Part shown: positions 33,760 through 44,784 of the stretch, piece after piece | Layout of the letters: each line of letters starts with the position of its first letter | How positions within the stretch are numbered: the first letter of the stretch is position 1 | Origin: an uncultured Lachnospiraceae bacterium | GTDB taxonomy: Bacteria > Bacillota > Clostridia > Oscillospirales > CAG-272 | NCBI GenBank assembly: GCA_964466625.1 | Contig: CAYXQF010000002.1 | Span: 1 to 56,771, forward strand | Direction: 5' to 3' | DNA length: 56,771 nt | Translations under genes and position numbers: made by a program | Notes under the pieces: generated by a model | The model's database searches: none | What the model was told of the DNA's origin: nothing | What the model saw: the letters and a program-made list of their open reading frames with translations, nothing else

Positions 33760-33855
33760 ATGAAAATCCTTTTCCAAGGCGATTCCATCACCGATGGCGC
33801 TCGCGAATTTTTGAAAACTATAAAAGAGATTTTTGATACCCAAACAACGATATGA
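33760..33855 (+). pseudogene. 31-codon remnant of an SGNH/GDSL hydrolase gene
   Basis: 'MKILFQGDSITDGA' is the SGNH block I motif. The frame stops after 31 codons and a terminator follows directly. Confidence 0.45.
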
Positions 33856-33859
33856 CCGT

Positions 33860-33893
33860 AAACGGGCGATCCTCCCAAAGGATTCGCCCGTTT
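33860..33893 (+). terminator. Intrinsic terminator
   Basis: AAACGGGCGA..TCGCCCGTTT hairpin. Confidence 0.65.
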
Positions 33894-34033
33894 ATCTATA
33901 TATGGATATTTTTCACGTTTCTATAACCCATAAATTTTGAAAGAAAAAGTTGAGAAAAAACATAAGGAATTTCCCGTTTTCCAACGTATAATAAGTGAAA
34001 GCCAAAAAAATCCTTCAAAAAAGGAGAAAAAAC

Positions 34034-34588
34034 ATGATAGACAACGGTGCCAGTAGCTACCGCCGTTTTCTAAATGGAGAAGAAAGCGCTTTTGACGAGA
34101 TCATCAAAGCTTATCGTGAAAATCTCGTCTTTTTCATCAACCGCTATGTGCATGACATGAACGCCGCAGAGGATATTGCCGTCGATGCTTTTTTGGATCT
34201 GCTCGTTCATCGCCACCGCTATCACGGAAAAACCACGTTCAAAACCTATCTTTTTATGATCGGCAGAAGCCGTGCGCTTGATTATCTGCGGATAAAATGC
34301 CGCGAGATGACAGTACCTCTTTCGGAAGCAGAAAATGAACTGCCAAGTGTTCCCTCTCCTGAGGAATCCGTTTTTCAAAATGATGCCGCAAGAAGACTGA
34401 ATATGGCTATGGAAAATCTGCCCGAAGAAATGAAGATCGCCGTTCATCTGGTTTATTTTGAAAATCTTTCCTATGAGGAAACCGCACGCGTGATGAAAAA
34501 GACAAGAAAACAAGTGGATAACCTTTTATATCGCGCCAAAAATGAGCTTCGCTCCATATTAGGAAAGGAGGGCGTACTTCTTTTATGA
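34034..34588 (+). CDS. ECF-type sigma-70 family RNA polymerase sigma factor
   Basis: Region 2 'AEDIAVDAFLDLL...FKTYLFMIGRSRALDYLR' and region 4 'LVYFENLSYEETARVMKKTRKQVDNLLYRAKNELR'. AAAAGGAGAAAA RBS before the ATG at 34034. Confidence 0.85.
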   Translation: MIDNGASSYRRFLNGEESAFDEIIKAYRENLVFFINRYVHDMNAAEDIAVDAFLDLLVHRHRYHGKTTFKTYLFMIGRSRALDYLRIKCREMTVPLSEAENELPSVPSPEESVFQNDAARRLNMAMENLPEEMKIAVHLVYFENLSYEETARVMKKTRKQVDNLLYRAKNELRSILGKEGVLLL

Positions 34589-35220
34589 GAAGAAACGACA
34601 CGGAATTCAAAGCGGAAATTTTTCGCCGCTATGATATTCATAAGAAAAAACAACGAAAAAAATATATCACGGCAGGCTCCTCATGTGCCGCGGTCATGCT
34701 TTGTGCCGCGCTCACGTTGCCGCTCCTCACGGGCATGACAACAGAGGAAAGTGCGCCGCCTCTCACGCAGATCGAAAATGCCACCATCGCGACAACGACG
34801 GAAAGCATCGCGATACCCGACACGGTGAAGCTCTCTTTCGGTGAAAAAACGTGGGAATTTGCAGGCGAAGATGCCAAAGCCGTGATGGAATACCTCACGG
34901 AAAACCGCAGACCCGATTATCAGATATTCACCTACGGAGGTGCCACGACCACAGAAGCCACGACCTCGGAAGCAACCGCGGCGACTGACGGAAAAGACGA
35001 TGCCGCCGAGAACGGCAATTATCTTCTGACCGCATACTACCAGATGGATACGGCAACTGTCATAACGGCGGAATCCGCAACGATCTGCGGCACGTCAAGC
35101 ACAAAAAACGAGAACAGCAAAACTTATATTCTGACCGAAATTTATTGGGATTTCAAAAAGCTGGAAACGTTTTTAGATGATCTGAAAAGCGGCAAGTCCG
35201 AGGAAGGAGATACCCCATGA
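34585..35220 (+). CDS. Single-pass membrane protein, putative anti-sigma/sensor partner
   Basis: ATGA overlap with the sigma gene. It has a short basic N-terminus, one TM (AAVMLCAALTLPLL) and a Thr/Ala/Glu-rich extracytoplasmic domain. Confidence 0.45.
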   Translation: MRRNDTEFKAEIFRRYDIHKKKQRKKYITAGSSCAAVMLCAALTLPLLTGMTTEESAPPLTQIENATIATTTESIAIPDTVKLSFGEKTWEFAGEDAKAVMEYLTENRRPDYQIFTYGGATTTEATTSEATAATDGKDDAAENGNYLLTAYYQMDTATVITAESATICGTSSTKNENSKTYILTEIYWDFKKLETFLDDLKSGKSEEGDTP

Positions 35221-36479
35221 TGAAAAAACTACTGAAAACCGCCGTGAGCTTTGCACTTCTCGCTTCCATGGCGCTCGGCGCCGTCAGTTGCGGCAATGAA
35301 ACCATAGGTAGCCTCACGGACGGCATCACCCAAAACGCGGTTCGCGGCAAAAATGCCGACGAAAAATTCATCTCCTCGCAGATGGATTTCGCGGTCAAGC
35401 TTTTCCAGAGATCTTCCGCAGAAAAGGGAGAAAATACGCTCATCTCGCCTCTTTCCGTGATGTCAGCACTCGCGATGACCGCAAACGGCGCAAAAGGCGA
35501 AACCCTCTCCCAGATGGAAAAAACGCTCGGCGGAAAGCTTTCCATCGAGGAACTGAACGAATATCTCCACAGCTATGTGGAAAACCTGCCGACGAGTGAA
35601 AAAGCAAGCTTTCACCTGGCAAACTCCATTTGGGCAGATGAAGCGGATATTGTCATCAACAAAGAATTTTTGCAGACCACCGCCGATTACTACCACGCGA
35701 GCGTTTACAGCGAACCCTTTGGCGCTAAAACTGCAGACAAGATCAATGAATGGGTAGACGAAAACACCCACGGCATGATCAAAAAGATCATTGATGAAGT
35801 ACCTCCGGAGGCGGTGATGTTCCTTGTCAATGCGCTCGCTTTCGAAGCGGAATGGGCAACGCCTTACGACAAATTCTATATCAAAAACGGCACCTTCACA
35901 AACGCTGACGGTGGGGAAGTGACCGTGGAAATGATGGGTGCGAGCGAAAACTACTATCTGGAGGACAAAAACACCACGGGTTTTGTCAAAAACTACGCCG
36001 GCGGCGACTACAGCTTCGTGGCACTTCTGCCCGATGAAGATATTGCCATCGAAGACTATGTGGCAAGCCTCACGGGTGAGAAGCTGACAAAGCTTTTGGA
36101 AAATAAAACACGCACCGAAGTCAGCGCGAAAATGCCGAAATTTGAGTTCGACTACGATATCCGCCTCAACGATGCCCTGAAAGCCATGGGCATCACTAAC
36201 GCTTTCGATAACGCGGATCTTTCGGGGCTCGGCACGTCAAACGATCCGCTCTACATCAGCTACGTTCAGCACAAGACCTTTATCAAGGTCGACGCACTCG
36301 GCACGAAGGCAGGTGCCGCAACCGCGGTCGCAGTCTACGGCGAAAGCGGCTCGACAAGCATCACAAAGCCCAAGATCGTCATTCTCGACCGTCCGTTTGT
36401 CTATATGATCGTGCATAACGAAACGGGTCTTCCGCTTTTCATTGGCGCGGTAACGAACCTCGACGGCGCGGCAAACTAA
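35217..36479 (+). CDS. Serpin family protease inhibitor, lipoprotein (serpin 1)
   Basis: Lipobox 'GAVSC'. 'ENTLISPLSVMSALAMTANGAKGET', hinge 'GTKAGAATAV' and 'ILDRPFVYMIVHNETGLPLFIG'. Its start overlaps the upstream stop (ATGATG). Confidence 0.9.
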   Translation: MMKKLLKTAVSFALLASMALGAVSCGNETIGSLTDGITQNAVRGKNADEKFISSQMDFAVKLFQRSSAEKGENTLISPLSVMSALAMTANGAKGETLSQMEKTLGGKLSIEELNEYLHSYVENLPTSEKASFHLANSIWADEADIVINKEFLQTTADYYHASVYSEPFGAKTADKINEWVDENTHGMIKKIIDEVPPEAVMFLVNALAFEAEWATPYDKFYIKNGTFTNADGGEVTVEMMGASENYYLEDKNTTGFVKNYAGGDYSFVALLPDEDIAIEDYVASLTGEKLTKLLENKTRTEVSAKMPKFEFDYDIRLNDALKAMGITNAFDNADLSGLGTSNDPLYISYVQHKTFIKVDALGTKAGAATAVAVYGESGSTSITKPKIVILDRPFVYMIVHNETGLPLFIGAVTNLDGAAN

Positions 36480-36501
36480 AACACGCAAAAGGAGGTTTTT
36501 T

Positions 36502-37755
36502 ATGAAAAACACGATAAAAATTCTGACTTCTCTGCTTCTGCTTACGTCGATGCTTCTTAGCATCGTTTCCTGCGGCACCGTCAGCGCTGCAAATCTCATG
36601 GACGATGTGAAGGCGCAAGCGGTCACGGGAAAAACCGCTGACGAAAAATTCATTTCCTCGCAGATGGATTTTGCCGCGGAAATCTTTCGACTTTCCGCCA
36701 AGGAAAGTGACTATGAAAATACGCTCATCTCTCCCCTTTCCATCATGGTAGCACTCGCGATGACCGCAAACGGCGCAGACGGAGAAACTCGTGCGCAGAT
36801 GGAAGAAATCCTCGGCGCAGAGATCACCCTTGATGATCTGAACGAATATCTTTACAGCTATCTTAACACCCTGCCCTCCTCGGAAAAATACAAAGTCCAC
36901 CTCGCAAATTCCATTTGGGCGCGTGACGGCAAGCTCGAACCGCAAAAGGATTTTTTGCAGACAGTTGCAAACTATTACGGTGCGGATTTTTACAAAGCAC
37001 CCTTTGACACCTCGACGGTAGAGGACGTGAACGCTTGGGTAAAGAAAAACACAAGCGGCATGATCGACAAGATCATCAATGAGATCACGCCCACCACCGT
37101 GATGTATCTCATCAATGCACTTTCTTTTGATGCCGAATGGGCAGAAAAATACGAAAAGAGTGACGTGCATGACCGCACCTTCACCACGCTTTCGGGGGAA
37201 ACACAGACCGTTTCCATGATGTATTCCGAGGAATCGAAATATATCGAAGACGAAAACACGAGCGGCTTTATCAAAGACTACGCCGACGGCAAATACAGCT
37301 TCGTGGCACTCCTGCCCGATGAAAACGTGGATTTTGAAGACTACGTTTCGTCGCTGACGGGTGAGAAGATCGAAGCTCTCATGAAAAGCAAACAGCGCAC
37401 CGCCGTGGACGCGGGGCTTCCGCAGTTTGAGTATTCCTATGATATCTCGCTTGTTGAAGTTTTGAAAACGATGGGTATGACGGACGCTTTCGATGCAACG
37501 GGCGCTGATTTTTCGAAGATCGGCAAGACGGTGGACGGCAATCCGCTTTACATCAGCGAAGTGCTCCACAAGACCTTCATTTCCGTGGACACCGAACGCA
37601 CGAAAGCCGCCGCCATCACGCTCGTAGCAATGGAAGAATGCACTTCCGTGGCGATCACAAAATCCGTGATTCTTGACAGACCGTTTGTTTATATGATCGT
37701 GGAAAACGAAACGGAGCTGCCGATCTTCATCGGCACCGTGACCGCGATCGGATAA
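36502..37755 (+). CDS. Serpin family protease inhibitor, lipoprotein (serpin 2)
   Basis: Lipobox 'SIVSC', hinge 'RTKAAAITLV' and 'ILDRPFVYMIVENETELPIFIG'. Confidence 0.9.
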   Translation: MKNTIKILTSLLLLTSMLLSIVSCGTVSAANLMDDVKAQAVTGKTADEKFISSQMDFAAEIFRLSAKESDYENTLISPLSIMVALAMTANGADGETRAQMEEILGAEITLDDLNEYLYSYLNTLPSSEKYKVHLANSIWARDGKLEPQKDFLQTVANYYGADFYKAPFDTSTVEDVNAWVKKNTSGMIDKIINEITPTTVMYLINALSFDAEWAEKYEKSDVHDRTFTTLSGETQTVSMMYSEESKYIEDENTSGFIKDYADGKYSFVALLPDENVDFEDYVSSLTGEKIEALMKSKQRTAVDAGLPQFEYSYDISLVEVLKTMGMTDAFDATGADFSKIGKTVDGNPLYISEVLHKTFISVDTERTKAAAITLVAMEECTSVAITKSVILDRPFVYMIVENETELPIFIGTVTAIG

Positions 37756-37764
37756 GGAGGAACC

Positions 37765-39027
37765 ATGAAAACGAAAATCAAAATCATAACGGCGCTTTTA
37801 CTCCTCATCGCCTTGACAGTGAACGTCGTTTCCTGCGGCGCTGTGGGCGCCTCTGACCTGATGGACGGCATCAAAGCCAGAGAGATTCCCGAAAAAAGCG
37901 CCGATGAAATATTCACAAGCACCCAATTTGCGTTCGCCGCAGCGCTTTTTCGCCGTGCGGCAGAAGAAAGCGGCTGTGAAAACACGCTCATCTCTCCCCT
38001 TTCTGTGATATCTGCGCTCGCGATGACGGCAAACGGTGCAAAAGGCGAAACCCTTGCGCAGATGGAAAAAGTCCTCGGCGGCGGTTTAACCTTAGCGGAG
38101 CTGAACGAATATCTCCACAGCTATGTGGAAAACCTGCCATCGGGAGAGGATTATAAGCTCCACCTTGCCAATTCCATTTGGGCAAAGAAAAATCATTTGA
38201 CGATTCGTCCCGATTTCTTGCAAACCAACGCCGATTACTATGGTGCTGATCTCTTTGAAGCGCCCTTTGACACATCGACCGTGAAGGACATCAACGATTG
38301 GGTAAGCAAAAATACCGACGATATGATCAAAAACATCGTGGACGAGATCCATGATGACAACGTGATGTTCCTCATCAACGCGCTCTGTTTTGACGCAGCT
38401 TGGGAAACGCCCTACAGCGAAAGCGCGGTGAGAGATTATGATTTCCGTACGCTCAGCGGTAGCTATCAGACCGTGAAAATGATGTATTCCTCGGAGGATA
38501 TCTATCTTTCCGATGAAAACACCGAGGGGTTTATCAAAAGCTACAAGGACGGCAAATACAGCTTTGTGGCACTCCTGCCCGATCAAAAGGAAGATTTCTC
38601 GGAATACGTTTCTTCCTTGACGGGTGAAAAGCTGCAAACACTCCTTGAAAATAAGCAATATCACACCGTCTACGCAGGACTTCCGAAATTTGAATACGAA
38701 TACGAGCTTTCCATGAATAAGATCCTGCAGGATATGGGCATCACCGATGCCTTTGACGGTGGGAAAGCCGACCTTTCGGGCATCGGGGACGCTTCCATCG
38801 GCAATCTTTTCATCGGTAACGTGAAGCACAAAACATTCATTTCCGTTGGTGAAAAGCGCACCAAAGCCGCCGCTGTGACATCCGTCATCGTTTGCACCTT
38901 GAGCGCGGAGATCACAGGAGAACGCCCGAAGACCGTCATTCTTGACCGTCCGTTCGTTTATATGATCATCGAAAACGAAACGGCCCTCCCCATTTTCATC
39001 GGCACCGTGACGGAAATCGAAAGCTAA
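37765..39027 (+). CDS. Serpin family protease inhibitor, lipoprotein (serpin 3)
   Basis: Lipobox 'NVVSC', hinge 'RTKAAAVTSV' and 'ILDRPFVYMIIENETALPIFIG'. Confidence 0.9.
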   Translation: MKTKIKIITALLLLIALTVNVVSCGAVGASDLMDGIKAREIPEKSADEIFTSTQFAFAAALFRRAAEESGCENTLISPLSVISALAMTANGAKGETLAQMEKVLGGGLTLAELNEYLHSYVENLPSGEDYKLHLANSIWAKKNHLTIRPDFLQTNADYYGADLFEAPFDTSTVKDINDWVSKNTDDMIKNIVDEIHDDNVMFLINALCFDAAWETPYSESAVRDYDFRTLSGSYQTVKMMYSSEDIYLSDENTEGFIKSYKDGKYSFVALLPDQKEDFSEYVSSLTGEKLQTLLENKQYHTVYAGLPKFEYEYELSMNKILQDMGITDAFDGGKADLSGIGDASIGNLFIGNVKHKTFISVGEKRTKAAAVTSVIVCTLSAEITGERPKTVILDRPFVYMIIENETALPIFIGTVTEIES

Positions 39028-39031
39028 AGCA

Positions 39032-39068
39032 AAAACCGCATTTGTTTTTCAAATGCGGTTTTCCTTTT
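39032..39068 (+). terminator. Intrinsic terminator ending the serpin operon
   Basis: AAAACCGCATTTG-loop-AAATGCGGTTTT + CCTTTT. Confidence 0.8.
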
Positions 39069-39286: not shown

Positions 39287-40255
39287 ATGATAAAAGTTGA
39301 ACACTTAACCAAACAGTACGGCGACCGCTACGCCGTAAACGACATCAGCTTTGAGGTGCATAAAGGTGAGATCGTCGGTTTTCTCGGCCCTAACGGTGCG
39401 GGTAAATCCACGACCATGAATATCCTCACAGGCTATCTTTCCTCCACATCGGGCAAAGCCATGATCGATGGCTTGGATATTCTCGAACACCCGCTCGCAG
39501 TGAAGCAGAAGATCGGTTTCCTCCCCGAAACCCCTCCGCTTTATCTGGAAATGACAGTTAAAGAATATCTCAGCTTCATCTATGATCTGAAACGTTGTAA
39601 GCTTAATCGCAAAGCACATATCGAAGAAGTCTGCCGTGTTGTCAAGATCGAGGATACCATGAACCGTATGATCAAAAACCTTTCCAAAGGTTACCGCCAG
39701 AGAGTCGGTATCGCGGGCGCTATCATCGGCAATCCCGAGGTCATCATTTTTGACGAACCGACCAACGGCCTTGACCCCAAGCAGATCATCGACATTCGTA
39801 ACCTCATTCGTGAGCTTGGCAAAGAAAGAACCATCATTCTCAGCACACATATCCTCTCCGAGGTAAAAGCCGTTTGCGATCGAATCCTCATCATCAACGA
39901 AGGCAAGATCGTCGCTGACGAAAAGACAGAAAATATCGAAGGCGCGCTCCGCGGTAACCGCAGACTCGCGATCCGCATTGACGGCCCCGCGCAGACAATT
40001 CAAAATGCGCTCAAACGCATCAACGGTATTGTTTACGCAGAGGTTTCCACCTCTCATGAAGACGGAAGCTCCACATTCATCGTTGAAAGCAAAAATAATA
40101 TCGACGTGCGCAAGCCGATCTTCTATATGCTCGCACAAAACTCATGGCCCATTCTTTCTCTTGAATTCACAGGAGCAAATCTTGAGGATATTTTCATTTC
40201 CGTTGTCGACGAAGCGGAAGCCGCAGAAAACGGCACAAAAACCAAAAAGGCTTAA
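39287..40255 (+). CDS. ABC transporter ATP-binding protein (ABC-2/GldA-like)
   Basis: Walker A 'GPNGAGKST', signature 'LSKGYRQR' and Walker B 'IIFDEPTNGLD'. Confidence 0.9.
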   Translation: MIKVEHLTKQYGDRYAVNDISFEVHKGEIVGFLGPNGAGKSTTMNILTGYLSSTSGKAMIDGLDILEHPLAVKQKIGFLPETPPLYLEMTVKEYLSFIYDLKRCKLNRKAHIEEVCRVVKIEDTMNRMIKNLSKGYRQRVGIAGAIIGNPEVIIFDEPTNGLDPKQIIDIRNLIRELGKERTIILSTHILSEVKAVCDRILIINEGKIVADEKTENIEGALRGNRRLAIRIDGPAQTIQNALKRINGIVYAEVSTSHEDGSSTFIVESKNNIDVRKPIFYMLAQNSWPILSLEFTGANLEDIFISVVDEAEAAENGTKTKKA

Positions 40256-40276
40256 AACCAAAGGAGGCTACTTACC

Positions 40277-40993
40277 ATGCTCGCCATTTACAAACGTGAA
40301 ATGCGTGCCTATTTCAGCTCCCCCGTGGGCTATATGTTCTGTGCGATCTTCTTCGCTGTCAGCGCATTTCTTTTCATGATCTACACCGTGCAGGCGGGAG
40401 AAAGCGCAAGCTATTCCAGCTATTTCTCTCTTTTGCTCTATCTTTTCATCGTTATCATTCCCCTTCTCACCATGAAGCTCATCAGTGAAGAGCGCAAAAT
40501 GCGCACCGATCAGCTGATCATGACCGCGCCTGTTACCCTCGCGGGTATCGTTATGGGTAAATATCTCGCGGCACTGACCATGTTCGGCGGTTCCTTTATC
40601 GTTTCTTCCGCGATCTATTATATTCCGCTCGCTCTCTACGGCACGCCCAATGCAGCTATGTATATCGGTTGCGTCATCGGTGTTTTCCTTGTCGGCAGTG
40701 CGTTTATTTCGATCGGTATCTTTATTTCTTCCCTCACGGAAAACCAGTTCATCGCGGCACTCGGCACCATTGGCGCCATCGTCTTCCTTTTGATGGTCAG
40801 CGCGCTCAACAGCTATATCAATAGCGAAGTGATCCGTAATTTCCTCTCTGCGCTTTCCGTAACCAGCCGTTATGCCTACTTCGCATACGGTATTTTCAGC
40901 TATGATTCCCTCATTTATTATATTTCTCTCTCGGCGGTCTTCCTCTTTTTGACGGTAAGAGTCTTTGAAAAACGCCGTTGGTCCAAATCTTAA
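40277..40993 (+). CDS. ABC-2 type transporter permease (GldF-like)
   Basis: 'MLAIYKREMRAYFSSPVGY' N-terminus and 6 TM segments. Confidence 0.8.
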   Translation: MLAIYKREMRAYFSSPVGYMFCAIFFAVSAFLFMIYTVQAGESASYSSYFSLLLYLFIVIIPLLTMKLISEERKMRTDQLIMTAPVTLAGIVMGKYLAALTMFGGSFIVSSAIYYIPLALYGTPNAAMYIGCVIGVFLVGSAFISIGIFISSLTENQFIAALGTIGAIVFLLMVSALNSYINSEVIRNFLSALSVTSRYAYFAYGIFSYDSLIYYISLSAVFLFLTVRVFEKRRWSKS

Positions 40994-41011
40994 AAAGGAG
41001 AAGACTTGAAA

Positions 41012-42595
41012 ATGGCAAACAAACCTACAAGCAAAAAGACGGCAAAACGTCCGTCCGATAAAAGAAACTTGAAATACGGTTCCCTTTCCGTTGCCGTGAC
41101 CGTGATCTTCGTGGCACTCGTCATCATCATCAATGTCATCGCGACATCTCTTTCCGGCGTTTACGGCTGGTACACAGACATGACTGCCTCCGGCATCTAT
41201 TCTCTCTCCGACGCCTTCAAAACGCAGATGGAAGAGATCCTGACACCCGAAGACGGCGGTGAGCCCGTTCACGTCAACATCGTCCTCATGGCAGAGGAAG
41301 ATTATTTCAAGGGATACAGCGTTTATGCCAACTATCTCTACCACACCATTCAGGAATTGGTAGAAGCTTTTGATAATTTCCACCTCGTGGCATACAACAC
41401 CACGATCCACCCCGAGCTTGCGGAAAAATACAAAATGACCACGCTCGATACCCCCGCGCTTGACGATATCGTTTTTGAGCTTGCAGATGAAAACGGTGTG
41501 GCGCTTGAAAACAGCCCCGCGAAAAAATACACCGCTCGTTCCTTCTTCATCTCCGATTCCGACAGCGGTAACGTTGTCGGCTATAACGCCGAAGCGAAAT
41601 TCCTCTCCGCAGTAGCACTTCTCACCGGCAAGACCGAAAAACCCACCGCATACTATTTGCAGGGTCACGGCGAGCCCACCTTGGCAGAAGCTTCCGATTG
41701 GACAAACGTTCTTGAGCTTGCCGGCTTTGACGTTTGCGAAATCAACCTCGCGGAAGAAGATTTTGACGCAGACCGCCATGATGATGACATCGTGATCATC
41801 AACTGCCCCAAATATGACTTGATGTCCACCACTTCGTTCTCCGAAGTCAAAGAGATCCGTGATTTCCTTGGTTCTTCCTATGGTAACATGATCGTGATCG
41901 AAGACGCAAGCGTTCCCACACTCCCCGCACTCGAAGGTCTTCTTTCCGAATGGGGACTCGGTTTTGGCGGTTCTGTGATCGATGATAAACACTCCGTTTC
42001 CTCCTCCGGTGCGGCAAAGGTTATTGCAGATTATGCACAGACTTACAATCCGAGCGCAGAAACACAGCCTTTCTCCGGTCAGATCCTCAAAAAGCTTTTC
42101 GGCACCAAATCCAACCTGCCCATCACCCTTTTCTCCACACCTAAGGAAGTAAAGATCCTTGATGACAGCGAGATCGTAAAGGCGATGAACGGCTCGGTTT
42201 CTTCCTTCTCCCTTTTGAACTCTTACAGCACCGCGCAGACCTCGGATAAAAACGGCACCGTAACAGGCTCCGTATCCCTTCTCGGTGTTTCCCGTATGAT
42301 CTGGGAGCTTAACTCCGACGAGATCAGCTACGTAGTAGCGCTCAGCTCGCAGGACTTCCTCTCCGGTGAATACGAAAGCTCCTGCGCAAACCGCAGCATC
42401 ATGTTCGCGCTTCTCAACCTGATGTGGGACAGCTCGGTTTCCTTCTCCGATATCGACTACAAAGAATTTGACTATTCTTCTCTTACCGTTTCCACCGCTC
42501 AGGCAAACACATGGACGATCGTCGGTGTGGTTGCGATCCCTGTGGTTATGGCGGCGCTCGGTATCTATGTTTATGTAAGGAGACGTCATTCATAA
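41012..42595 (+). CDS. GldG-like accessory protein of an ABC-type uncharacterized transport system
   Basis: N- and C-terminal TM anchors with a large extracytoplasmic domain ('YYLQGHGE'). The ATG at 41012 is preferred to the TTG at 41006 on RBS spacing. Confidence 0.65.
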   Translation: MANKPTSKKTAKRPSDKRNLKYGSLSVAVTVIFVALVIIINVIATSLSGVYGWYTDMTASGIYSLSDAFKTQMEEILTPEDGGEPVHVNIVLMAEEDYFKGYSVYANYLYHTIQELVEAFDNFHLVAYNTTIHPELAEKYKMTTLDTPALDDIVFELADENGVALENSPAKKYTARSFFISDSDSGNVVGYNAEAKFLSAVALLTGKTEKPTAYYLQGHGEPTLAEASDWTNVLELAGFDVCEINLAEEDFDADRHDDDIVIINCPKYDLMSTTSFSEVKEIRDFLGSSYGNMIVIEDASVPTLPALEGLLSEWGLGFGGSVIDDKHSVSSSGAAKVIADYAQTYNPSAETQPFSGQILKKLFGTKSNLPITLFSTPKEVKILDDSEIVKAMNGSVSSFSLLNSYSTAQTSDKNGTVTGSVSLLGVSRMIWELNSDEISYVVALSSQDFLSGEYESSCANRSIMFALLNLMWDSSVSFSDIDYKEFDYSSLTVSTAQANTWTIVGVVAIPVVMAALGIYVYVRRRHS

Positions 42596-44784
42596 TGAAA
42601 AATTTCTGGCAAAAAATCAAAGCGCTGTTTACGAAAAGCGACGTTGAAAAAACGTCGCTCCAGAAGACAGCCCGTATTTCCATCATTTTCGGCGGCATCG
42701 CCATCATCGGTGTGATCGTTTATTTCGCGATCATCGCACCGCTGCTCGTCTCCGAAGAAGCAAGAGTTCCCGATCTTTACGAAGGTGAAATTTATCAGTA
42801 TAGCACCATCTATATGCTCCGCCCCTATGAACGCTCGGAGATCGCTTCCGTTGAGATCAAAAACAGCTTTGAACAGTACAAGCTGAACGCTTACACAAGC
42901 GAAGGTGCCACGGACGTGCTTTTCCATGTTGAGGGCAAAGAAGAATACACTGTGACCGCAGAGCAGATCTCTTCCATTCTCGCTGACGTGCGTCTTCTTA
43001 TGACAAACTCCCCCACAGGACAAGACCGTGTCAACGAAATGGCAACCGCAGAAGACCTCAAAAACTACGGTCTTGACGCGGCTTCCGATCCTTCCTGGTT
43101 TGAAGTTACCCTCACTGACGGATCCTCTTACCGTGTCATCATCGGTAAGTCCCTCGTCACCTCCTCGGGCTACTACGCAATGCTCGAAGGCAGAAAGAAC
43201 GCCGTGACCGATGAAAACGGCGTGACCACCGAATACGATATCATCTATTCTCTCCAGTCCGCGCTTTCCGACACCGTTCTCCAACCCAGCACGATCCTTC
43301 TTTCCACAGAGCTCACCCCCTATTACACTACCTATTCCGCTTCAGACTTCATTTTGCTCCGCAACAACAAAGCAGAAGAACGTGAGCTTATCGTTCGCAT
43401 CGGTCTTGCGGAAGAACAAGGTGTTTCTGCGGCAAGCTCTGTTTATGAAATGTCCTATCCCGGCGCTTACGTCATCAACGAAGACTCCTTCGGCAGTGAC
43501 GTTCTCGGCGCACTTGCTTATATCACGGCAAACAACATCGTTGCTTACGGTGAAGAAATTCATACCCCTGAAGTATATGAAAAATACGGTCTTGACCTCG
43601 ATATCGAGCGTCTTGAAAACGTGACTGACACAAACTATGCCGTTCTCGTTTTCAACTGCATAGATCCCACGACCGAAAATTATGACGATTATACCCATGC
43701 GCTCTATTTCAGCGAAAAATTCACCGATCTTGACGGCTACGATTACTATTACGTTTACTCACCTTACCGCGAAGTCATCGGCAAGGTGCTTGCAGAAGAC
43801 TTCGAATTCATTGAGTGGACAGTCGCGCATTACACCAGCCCTTATATGTATTTTGAATACTTCACCAGTACGGAATATGTGGAACTCGTTTCCGAAAGAG
43901 ATGGCATCGACCACAGATTCATCATCTCCGGCAAGGAAAAATTCCGACACGTAGACGTTACCACATCGGGCGATGACGGTGAGATCATTTATAAAGAAGG
44001 CACACAGACACCTCTCACTTATGATGTCGACATCGTGACGGATAAATACGGTTATTCCGATTATTACGGCGATTTTGAGATCTTCCGTGATCTTTATTAC
44101 GTTCTCATCACGAGAACCTTAGCACTCTATGCTGACGTGGATTCTTCCACAACGATCGCCGGCGACGAGCCTGCTCGCAGCATCACCGTGCAGACAGCGG
44201 CAAAGGATCACCCCATCACGTATTATCGCTATGATGCAGACGGCAACAAAGTGGAATCTATCCGCGATCAAGGCGGCAACATCATCTGCCATGACGTGAC
44301 TGTGAAAACCACGCTTTCCAGCGGAGAAGTGGTCGACCTCACCTATGACACCGCTTATTTTGACGAAGACGCAAAGAAATTCTTCCTCAAGACCTATGAC
44401 ACCAACGACGGCTACGATAAGCCCAGCGCTTTCGAAAATGATGGCAACGGTAATGTAAAAGCCACCACTTTCCTCCCTGATTCCGCAAGCGGCACTTATA
44501 AGGAAACCATTTATTCCTATGACATTTATGATCTCTATGATGTCTACACCAATGCAGACGGCATAGAAGTGACACAGCTCAACCCCACTTATATGTATAT
44601 CATTCCCACCGTGACCGTGAACACCTATCGCATCTCCACAGGCGGCGAAAAGGTGCTTCTCGAAAGCGATGCAACGACCGCGGAAGTCGGCGTATATATC
44701 CGCACAGCGACCATTGACAAGCTCTTCTCTGATACCAACAAGCTTCTTGACGGCATCGAGATCGACACCTTGGCATTGAACTGA
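42595..44784 (+). CDS. DUF4340-like large extracytoplasmic protein with an N-terminal TM anchor
   Basis: TAATG start/stop overlap with the GldG-like gene. One N-terminal TM. Its position matches the usual fourth gene of such clusters. Confidence 0.55.
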   Translation: MKNFWQKIKALFTKSDVEKTSLQKTARISIIFGGIAIIGVIVYFAIIAPLLVSEEARVPDLYEGEIYQYSTIYMLRPYERSEIASVEIKNSFEQYKLNAYTSEGATDVLFHVEGKEEYTVTAEQISSILADVRLLMTNSPTGQDRVNEMATAEDLKNYGLDAASDPSWFEVTLTDGSSYRVIIGKSLVTSSGYYAMLEGRKNAVTDENGVTTEYDIIYSLQSALSDTVLQPSTILLSTELTPYYTTYSASDFILLRNNKAEERELIVRIGLAEEQGVSAASSVYEMSYPGAYVINEDSFGSDVLGALAYITANNIVAYGEEIHTPEVYEKYGLDLDIERLENVTDTNYAVLVFNCIDPTTENYDDYTHALYFSEKFTDLDGYDYYYVYSPYREVIGKVLAEDFEFIEWTVAHYTSPYMYFEYFTSTEYVELVSERDGIDHRFIISGKEKFRHVDVTTSGDDGEIIYKEGTQTPLTYDVDIVTDKYGYSDYYGDFEIFRDLYYVLITRTLALYADVDSSTTIAGDEPARSITVQTAAKDHPITYYRYDADGNKVESIRDQGGNIICHDVTVKTTLSSGEVVDLTYDTAYFDEDAKKFFLKTYDTNDGYDKPSAFENDGNGNVKATTFLPDSASGTYKETIYSYDIYDLYDVYTNADGIEVTQLNPTYMYIIPTVTVNTYRISTGGEKVLLESDATTAEVGVYIRTATIDKLFSDTNKLLDGIEIDTLALN

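Follow-up and report, generated by a model that had tools for sequence, protein, structure and literature searches.

The stretch of DNA analysed here (hereafter, the window) comprises positions 1 to 56,771 of contig CAYXQF010000002.1 (56,771 nucleotides, nt; assembly GCA_964466625.1) from an uncultured Lachnospiraceae bacterium. It contains a compact operon that encodes a sigma factor of the extracytoplasmic function (ECF) type, a single-pass membrane protein (hereafter, the partner) and three tandem serpins, which are predicted to be lipoproteins. A preceding analysis of the same DNA, made without database searches (the sequence-only reading), had suggested that the sigma factor regulates the serpins and that the partner is a bait for exogenous proteases. 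The principal features of the locus are as follows (aa, amino acids):

33860-33893, plus strand: hairpin that closes the upstream unit (a rhamnosidase-like gene and a GDSL-lipase remnant) and insulates the sigma operon
33962-33992, plus strand: predicted ECF-type promoter, -35 element ATAAGGAAT (33962-33970), 14-nt spacer, -10 element CGTATAAT (33985-33992)
34034-34588, plus strand: ECF (group 4) sigma factor, 184 aa
34585-35220, plus strand: partner, single-pass membrane protein of 211 aa, putative anti-sigma factor
35217-36479, plus strand: serpin 1, predicted lipoprotein of 420 aa, PF00079
36502-37755, plus strand: serpin 2, predicted lipoprotein of 417 aa, PF00079
37765-39027, plus strand: serpin 3, predicted lipoprotein of 420 aa, PF00079
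39031-39063, bidirectional: intrinsic terminator with a 14-bp stem and a T-run, closing the operon

The five open reading frames (ORFs) lie on the same strand and form one unit between the strong upstream hairpin and the strong terminator. The TGA of the sigma gene and the ATG of the partner gene share the tetranucleotide ATGA (34585-34588), and the TGA of the partner gene (35218-35220) overlaps the ATG of serpin 1 (35217) in the context ccATGATG, again by 4 nt. Serpins 1 and 2 are 22 nt apart, and serpins 2 and 3 only 9 nt apart, each gap containing a ribosome-binding site of the GGAGG type (AAAGGAGG and TAAGGAGG, respectively). The terminator stem-loop, which is followed by UUUUCCUUUU, folds with dG -18.9 kcal/mol (z -5.1 compared with shuffled sequences), whereas the region of the upstream hairpin (33856-33900) folds with dG -23.6 kcal/mol (z -6.5), a value matched by none of 200 shuffles; this hairpin is kept in the close relative L001. 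A search of the window against Rfam detected no RNA family. Thus, the two gene overlaps, the 22- and 9-nt gaps with their ribosome-binding sites and the single strong terminator noted in the sequence-only reading were all borne out. In the public protein collection, the five proteins were represented only by the window contig itself or by a 91%-identical relative, GCA_045122995.1; the relatives of the locus come from metagenomes of gut, rumen and faeces and belong to uncultured Clostridia.

The sigma protein matched only two Pfam domains, Sigma70_r2 (aa 24-86) and Sigma70_r4_2 (aa 120-172), and scored 95.3 bits against the NCBIfam model TIGR02937 (sigma70-ECF, cut-off 42.9), so that it possesses the sigma-2 and sigma-4 regions, with neither sigma-1.1 nor sigma-3, as is characteristic of the ECF (group 4) sigma factors. 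Together with the PF00079 matches of the serpins described below, these Pfam results confirm the domain calls of the sequence-only reading. Among the NCBIfam models, no equivalog or subfamily cut-off was reached: the best match, TIGR02985, scored 103 bits against the required 126, and the SigV model gave 58 bits, below its cut-off of 190. The closest solved sigma factor structures match the window protein only at E 5e-18. The start codon was placed at 34034 because the orthologous sigma proteins begin with MDNGASSYRRFL.

The predicted promoter, ATAAGGAAT-N14-CGTATAAT, ends 41 nt before the sigma ATG and is the single match to this pattern in the window, where 0.07 matches would be expected. 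The two boxes occur at the same distance in 16 of the 21 orthologous loci; in other species, the regions upstream of the orthologous sigma genes contain ATAAGGAAT and (C/T)GTATAAT, separated by 14-15 nt and ending about 40-45 nt before the start codon. A weight matrix built from 15 genome loci was applied to 80 independently fetched metagenome loci, and a site of at least 22 bits was found no more than 120 nt upstream of the sigma gene in 67 of 77 of these loci. Elsewhere in the test loci, only one site reached this score, and it also precedes a sigma ORF. With GGAAT at -35 and CGT at -10, the boxes belong to the ECF type and therefore resemble what is expected of an autoregulatory promoter; in front of the sigma gene itself, GGAAT-N14-CGTATAAT combines a -35 element of the AAC/AAT type with a -10 element of the CGT type, and is thus predicted to be the promoter through which the sigma factor controls its own gene. 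In a subset of the orthologous operons (L018, L027, L052, L073, L080, L084 and L085), a conserved hairpin of the leader, GAAGGGGTCAGACGTGACCCC, follows the -10 element within a few bases. This hairpin, which may be a 5'-end stabiliser or a regulatory element, is absent from the leader of the window operon.

The same motif also precedes serpin genes without a neighbouring sigma gene. In locus L016, 30 nt separate the ATG of such a serpin from the end of a site with a perfect score (29.9), and in L012, CAGGAAT-N14-CGTATAAA lies directly upstream of a stand-alone serpin gene, so that this type of promoter is tied to serpins independently of gene order. The window contains no second copy of the motif, and the gaps between the genes are too short to hold a promoter; the simplest reading is, therefore, that the serpins are co-transcribed with the sigma gene. 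The contrary view, that the sigma/partner pair and the serpins are unrelated neighbours and that the serpins are expressed from a constitutive promoter of their own, could draw on weak sigma-70-like matches (9 of 12 positions) on the plus strand within coding sequence. It is, however, highly improbable given the 4-nt overlap and the 22- and 9-nt gaps at the junctions, the presence of the sigma-type promoter directly before stand-alone serpins, and synteny that holds down to 33% identity of the partner and across families of Clostridia.

The survey of gene order in relatives that the sequence-only reading had recommended was run from three starting points: the partner, the serpins and the sigma factor. 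A search of 5.8 billion proteins with the single partner sequence yielded three homologous clusters (91, 46 and 33% identity), all three of which are encoded in the order sigma-partner-serpin, with two or three serpins each; only with a profile made from the partners found in related loci did the number rise to 148 clusters, all of them unnamed. Among the further members of the partner family that are encoded on long contigs, four of five showed the same order. Searching the species-representative genomes with the serpins yielded at least 583 matching stretches, the best 80 of which are all from Clostridia. Accordingly, the earlier statement that serpins are sporadic in bacteria does not hold for this class. 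In 17 of the 57 serpin loci with enough upstream sequence, all from different species, a strongly related sigma gene (E 1e-48 to 1e-75) is located just upstream on the same strand, far beyond what chance would produce. The partner ORF overlaps the sigma stop codon by 4 nt in 18 of the 19 sigma-bearing loci.

The sigma search recovered 80 metagenome loci (57-64% identity), with a serpin downstream in 13 of 58. This raw fraction is misleading, the sample being dominated by two abundant lineages of the human gut; once the loci had been dereplicated at 90% identity of the sigma factor, there were 10 lineages with a serpin, 7 without and 9 that could not be judged, so that the order is kept in 10 of the 17 resolvable lineages. 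In the lineages without a serpin, the genes that follow encode a 521-aa Big_14 lipoprotein, a DUF3221 membrane protein of 435 aa and, in addition, a small protein (about 130-140 aa). Operons with the Big_14 and DUF3221 genes, under the same sigma family, partner tail and promoter, were found in abundant human-gut lineages (L087, 3953-7884; L100-L168, e.g., L101, 4501-8918), and in L085, the gene for a Big_14 lipoprotein is inserted between the partner and the serpin. Serpins are, thus, the commonest but not the sole cargo of this sigma/partner family.

Conversely, sigma factors of other ECF subfamilies also precede serpins (L014, L045, L053 and L056). In L014 (3101-6067), from a Caldanaerobacter metagenome-assembled genome (MAG), a tengpin orthologue follows a different ECF sigma factor and a single-pass, anti-sigma-like protein with a DUF4367 domain, with overlapping genes, and a second pair of sigma and membrane protein genes is located just upstream (1544-2968). 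The published RpoE1/TolB pair of T. tengcongensis was considered as a regulator of tengpin and rejected, given that it maps to a different locus (TTE0322/0323).

The partner consists of a basic cytoplasmic helix (aa 1-28), a membrane helix (approximately aa 29-50), a disordered linker (51-75) and a small outer core that is formed by a beta-beta-alpha unit (80-106) and a beta-alpha unit (179-202), split by a disordered insert rich in Thr, Ala and Glu (approximately 107-177). As anticipated in the sequence-only reading, the cytoplasmic tail is only about 28 aa long; it carries a net charge of +7 and leads into one membrane helix, beyond which lies an acidic outer part rich in Thr, Ala and Glu. 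No match at E <= 0.01 was obtained in Pfam or NCBIfam, and the DUF4179 and DUF3298 domains were not detected. In the AlphaFold2 model (mean pLDDT 58), the tail and the membrane span are predicted to form one continuous helix (aa 5-49, pLDDT 83-94), with disorder at aa 51-75 and 115-177; a Foldseek search of the Protein Data Bank (PDB) with this model found no structural neighbour (best E 1.4).

Across 121 members of the partner family, the segment before the membrane helix spans a median of 28 aa (range 25-33) with a net charge of +7, compared with medians of 175 aa and -17 for the outer part. Only the tail is conserved in the alignment of the family (consensus M-R-x-F-E-E-R-K-A-E-I-F-R-R-S-E...R-R-K); its conserved residues include F8, E11, F13 and R15. 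The outer domain of the majority type, modelled from the family member P0009 (mean pLDDT 81), comes with the same helix and a disordered linker (aa 51-92), which is followed by a well-folded alpha/beta head of about 140 aa (aa 93-235). The only Foldseek match of this head is a weak one to the Mago-nashi fold (E 4e-4, TM-score about 0.55), and this likeness was set aside as too weak to serve as a functional lead. An exhaustive profile search showed that the P0009-type domain is also present at the C-terminus of many longer proteins, of up to 594 aa, that lack the tail. In both modelled partners, the disordered linker (about 25-40 aa) adjoins the membrane, which suggests a common design that includes a short sigma-facing helix, a membrane span, a flexible tether and a variable head. 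Therefore, the protease-labile outer domain envisaged in the sequence-only reading stands in part: there are indeed disordered segments rich in Thr, Ala and Glu, but the domain is not simply labile, given its folded core and the domain of about 140 aa in most relatives.

A gene placed directly after the sigma gene and translationally coupled to it, a topology with the N-terminus inside and a conserved cytoplasmic segment are the features of a single-pass anti-sigma factor, and this architecture fits the partner, which is probably an anti-sigma-like protein. In view of its position, translational coupling and conservation, the tail is the putative sigma-binding part. The partner does not belong to the class I, zinc-binding or RsiV-type anti-sigma factors, as its cytoplasmic part is a single helix of about 28 aa and DUF4179 is lacking.

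The partner could respond to a cue other than proteolysis, such as envelope damage, a host molecule or a glycan, with an endogenous site-1 protease (signal peptidase or a PrsW-like enzyme) and then a site-2 protease releasing the sigma factor, as in the sigma-V/RsiV, sigma-P/RsiP and sigma-W/RsiW systems, and the serpins would then be one of several interchangeable cargoes. This is the mechanism of all characterised single-pass anti-sigma factors of Firmicutes (PMC4183432, PMC8844934), and it would readily accommodate the Big_14 and DUF3221 cargoes under the same sigma factor, tail and promoter, the presence of both kinds of cargo in L085, and the folded majority-type head, which weakly matches a fold that acts as a platform for protein binding. 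On account of these heads and of the cargoes other than serpins, such a generic envelope or ligand signal is a serious alternative, which we nevertheless consider rather unlikely because serpins are the commonest cargo after dereplication (10 of 17 lineages), several unrelated ECF subfamilies are independently paired with serpins, and the fusions of the tail to a serpin, described below, are hard to explain without a protease-related signal.

All three serpins of the operon match PF00079 from profile position 2 to 369 of 370 (E 2e-95, 1e-93 and 4e-92 for serpins 1, 2 and 3, respectively), and each has a lipobox after a basic n-region and a hydrophobic h-region (GAVS-C25, SIVS-C24 and NVVS-C24), from which they are predicted to be lipoproteins. 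The positions of the lipobox cysteines and of the reactive-centre loops are as follows:

35289-35291, plus strand: codon of the lipobox Cys25 of serpin 1 (signal peptide motif)
36571-36573, plus strand: codon of the lipobox Cys24 of serpin 2 (signal peptide motif)
37834-37836, plus strand: codon of the lipobox Cys24 of serpin 3 (signal peptide motif)
36300-36359, plus strand: reactive-centre loop of serpin 1 (hinge P15 to P5'), GTKAGAATAVAVYGESGSTS; putative P1 by the canonical register, Glu376 (36342-36344)
37597-37656, plus strand: reactive-centre loop of serpin 2, RTKAAAITLVAMEECTSVAI; putative P1 by register, Cys380
38857-38916, plus strand: reactive-centre loop of serpin 3, RTKAAAVTSVIVCTLSAEIT; putative P1 by register, Leu379

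The C-terminal signature VILDRPFVYMI (of the PROSITE PS00284 type) is present in all three proteins. Thus, the lipoboxes and C-terminal signatures reported in the sequence-only reading were recovered in every case, whereas the intact hinge that it ascribed to all three applies in full only to serpin 1, with the canonical GTKAGAAT. In serpins 2 and 3, the hinge reads RTKAAA[IV]T, which is canonical at P14 and P12-P10 but has Arg instead of Gly at P15 and Ile or Val at P9. The residue at P1 would be Glu, Cys and Leu in serpins 1, 2 and 3, respectively, and the orthologues of serpin 1 in L003 and L004 retain the E-S pair. There are two orthologous groups, one consisting of serpin 1 (hinge LGTKAGAAT) and the other of serpins 2 and 3 (E-x-RTKAAAVT); both groups are represented in L003 and L004, and therefore the duplication is older than these lineages. 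The reactive loops are hypervariable, differing between paralogues as well as between orthologues. Glu at the register P1, unusual for serpins, occurs in about 40% of the distinct reactive loops of the clade (38/96), which implies either that many of these serpins target acid-specific proteases or that the register is shifted in this clade. This residue was also examined as a possible mark of the sigma-linked serpins and dismissed, being as common in the unlinked ones (18/38 vs 20/58).

The closest solved structure to serpin 3 is that of tengpin (2PEE, E 1.6e-114, including the N-terminal extension), and the window serpins are about 50% identical to tengpin. A lipobox-like motif was identified in 34 of 35 sigma-linked serpins, and their hinge is of the inhibitory type. 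Tengpin and the siropins have been shown experimentally to be inhibitory, for example, against neutrophil elastase (PMC8201313, PMC5127057), and the window serpins are predicted to be inhibitory as well.

Inhibitors of this kind could also be directed inwards, restraining the secreted or cell-wall proteases of the bacterium itself, as has been proposed for the cellulosomal serpins of Clostridium thermocellum, with the sigma factor timing their expression. Indeed, clostridial serpins have been proposed to act on subtilisin-like bacterial enzymes (PMC8201313), and an array that looks like a cellulosome-type set was found in L043 (3827-13149), from an Oscillospiraceae MAG of sheep omasum, where six tandem serpin genes without a sigma gene upstream encode proteins with a lipoprotein-like signal and, before the serpin domain, a dockerin-like duplicated calcium-binding segment (YGDVNLDG...DVNLDGN). 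For the window operon, self-protection appears improbable: there is no protease gene in the conserved module, either in the window or in any locus in which the genes were examined, and loops that are hypervariable between close relatives are more in keeping with external targets that change than with an internal target that stays the same.

In two loci, an anti-sigma-like tail and a serpin are parts of the same protein. In L070 (3042-4424), from an Agathobacter MAG, the sigma stop codon lies within an overlapping ORF that begins with MKNYEEVAQDVFRRRDEYQKKMAKRRK and continues with a membrane helix, a short linker and a complete serpin (hinge GTKAGAAT); the tail alone scored 13.5 bits against the profile of the N-terminal tail of the family. 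In L056 (653-2005; Eubacteriales MAG), a different ECF sigma gene is followed, with a 4-nt overlap, by a gene for another protein consisting of a tail, a membrane helix and a serpin. In both fusions, the lipoprotein signal of the serpin is replaced by the basic N-terminal tail and the membrane helix. A search with the N-terminus of the L070 protein found a single protein, P0129, which is not a fusion, and a hidden Markov model (HMM) of the N-terminal tail detected no further fusions among the fetched loci.

The strongest hint at protease attack as the signal is this occurrence of a serpin in the position of the sensor head. In its most specific form, which corresponds to the bait of the sequence-only reading, this idea implies that exogenous proteases of the host or of other microbes cut the linkers of the partner, so that the attack on its outer part would itself be the site-1 event, with intramembrane proteolysis then freeing the sigma factor; in the fusions, the attack would fall on the tethered serpin head, and the induced serpins would shut the signal off by protecting the remaining partner molecules, a negative feedback. 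In addition to the fusions, in which the outer domain is replaced by a protein whose only known trigger is protease attack, this proposal would explain why both modelled partners have disordered stretches on the outer side of the membrane that contain many polar and small residues (aa 51-75 and 115-177 in the window protein, aa 51-92 in P0009), why the operon lacks a dedicated site-1 protease gene and why the outer domains, like the reactive loops of the serpins, are hypervariable. It is also in line with the induction of bifidobacterial serpins by proteases (PMC8201313). However, our literature search returned no anti-sigma factor that is cut by an exogenous or host protease, the outer domain is compact and well folded in most relatives, and the same sigma/partner family has non-serpin outputs in some lineages. 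We therefore put forward direct sensing by cleavage of the partner as a tentative possibility.

Short of that specific mechanism, we believe that the operon is, with reasonable likelihood, an autoregulated ECF sigma operon with surface-anchored protease inhibitors as its output, gated by the single-pass, anti-sigma-like partner. Control of the serpins by the sigma factor, the central claim of the sequence-only reading along with that of a single transcription unit, appears to be well supported by conserved synteny, the promoter shared with stand-alone serpins, the lone copy of this promoter in the window and the two fusions. Under the proposed scheme, RNA polymerase with the sigma factor would start at ATAAGGAAT-N14-CGTATAAT and produce one mRNA that spans the sigma, partner and three serpin genes and ends at the terminator. 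The conserved basic N-terminal helix of the partner, a putative single-pass anti-sigma factor, would hold the sigma factor at the membrane, and the outer part would be the sensor; once the outer part is lost, intramembrane proteolysis would free the sigma factor and expression of the whole operon would be amplified. The three serpins, with their different reactive loops, would be held by a lipid anchor on the external side of the membrane and would there trap serine proteases that attack the cell surface. The most likely signal, and the leading candidate in view of the fusions, the exposed flexible tethers, the absence of a site-1 protease gene from the module and the protease-induced serpins of bifidobacteria, would be extracellular proteolytic activity.

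Several observations weigh against this scheme or parts of it. Approximately two thirds of the clostridial serpin loci examined have no adjacent sigma gene, and the Big_14 and DUF3221 cargoes of the human-gut lineages imply that the signal need not be protease-specific. No anti-sigma domain described so far is as short as the tail of about 28 aa, which fits no known definition of such a domain, and the folded outer domains of most relatives suit the binding of a ligand or a protein as well as they suit cleavage. Furthermore, both fusions are located on short MAG contigs, and P0129, the nearest relative of the L070 tail (90% identical in this region), has an ordinary, non-serpin head, so that the fusion is either rare and recent or, possibly, an assembly artefact.

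The surroundings of the operon differ among relatives. Upstream, the window retains a GDSL-lipase gene remnant of 31 codons (33760-33855, MKILFQGDSITDG...), the product of an internal deletion of about 580 bp that spared a few codons at either end of the gene as well as the hairpin downstream, whereas the gene is full-length (about 220 aa) at the same position in the close relative L001 and in the more distant L004. Downstream, beyond an AT-rich spacer of 220 nt, there is a separate four-gene unit (39287-44784) that encodes an ABC ATPase (39287-40255), an ABC-2-type permease (40277-40993) and then two large ORFs. In L004, the unit with the ATPase and the permease is on the opposite side of the serpin module and inverted, which indicates that the module resides in a rearranging neighbourhood.

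Among the characterised systems, the closest parallel is sigma-V/RsiV of Bacillus subtilis, Enterococcus and Clostridioides difficile (PMC4183432, PMC9044953), an autoregulated ECF operon of Firmicutes with a single-pass anti-sigma factor that has a short cytoplasmic part, an organisation also proposed for the window operon. In sigma-V/RsiV, a defence enzyme of the host is the signal, resistance to that enzyme is the output, and the sigma factor is freed by regulated intramembrane proteolysis. Unlike RsiV, the window partner lacks DUF4179 and DUF3298 and has a shorter tail, the sigma factor falls below the SigV cut-off, and the cargo consists of serpins rather than peptidoglycan-modifying enzymes. 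The sigma-W/RsiW and sigma-E/RseA systems (PDB 5WUQ, 1OR7), to which the window sigma factor is distantly related (E 1e-8 to 3e-12), provide the model of a membrane anti-sigma factor that is removed by site-1 and then site-2 proteolysis, but their class I domains are four-helix structures of about 70-90 aa, often zinc-binding (HxxxCxxC), in contrast to the single helix of about 22-25 aa that precedes the membrane in the window partner.

On the side of the serpins, the bifidobacterial locus (cited in PMC8201313, refs 135 and 138) offers a gut-commensal serpin with protease-responsive transcription and, with it, the idea of an inducible anti-protease shield; the regulator there is a histidine kinase with a response regulator, and the locus is actinobacterial with a single serpin, whereas here, an ECF sigma factor and an anti-sigma-like partner take this place. 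The serpin clade of the window proteins also includes tengpin of Thermoanaerobacter/Caldanaerobacter (PDB 2PEE, 2PEF, 2VH4) and the Eubacterium siraeum siropins (PMC5127057), but no regulator has been described for these, and in the window, three paralogues whose reactive loops diverge lie in tandem. The sequence-only reading was not aware of any sigma/anti-sigma-controlled serpin module, and our searches agree: a full-text literature search found no paper linking serpins to regulation by ECF sigma or anti-sigma factors, the siropin paper and a review of the gut serpinome mention no such link, and the main text of the ECF classification 2.0 does not mention serpins, which might be listed in its supplements. 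Each component of the operon is of a known kind, namely, an ECF sigma factor, a single-pass anti-sigma-like protein and serpins of the tengpin clade. What appears undescribed is their combination, the sigma subfamily with its promoter, the family of very short-tailed partners and the fusions of the tail to a serpin.

Research on inflammatory bowel disease takes an interest in gut bacterial serpins, the siropins and that of Bifidobacterium among them, as modulators of host proteases. To our knowledge, almost nothing is known of how gut serpins are regulated outside bifidobacteria. The present analysis describes a regulatory module that is widely conserved in gut Clostridia, with a family of sigma factors, a promoter consensus, a family of short-tailed, anti-sigma-like proteins and a cargo of predicted lipoprotein serpins. 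The promoter motif can be used to predict regulons in other genomes, and the sensing of the luminal protease load by commensals becomes directly testable. If proteases indeed gate the release of the sigma factor, this would be a new signalling input for ECF sigma factors and a new role for serpins; if, furthermore, the partner and the fusions sense proteases directly, they would provide two firsts, namely, the gating of an anti-sigma factor by an exogenous protease and the use in bacteria of a serpin as a signalling domain.

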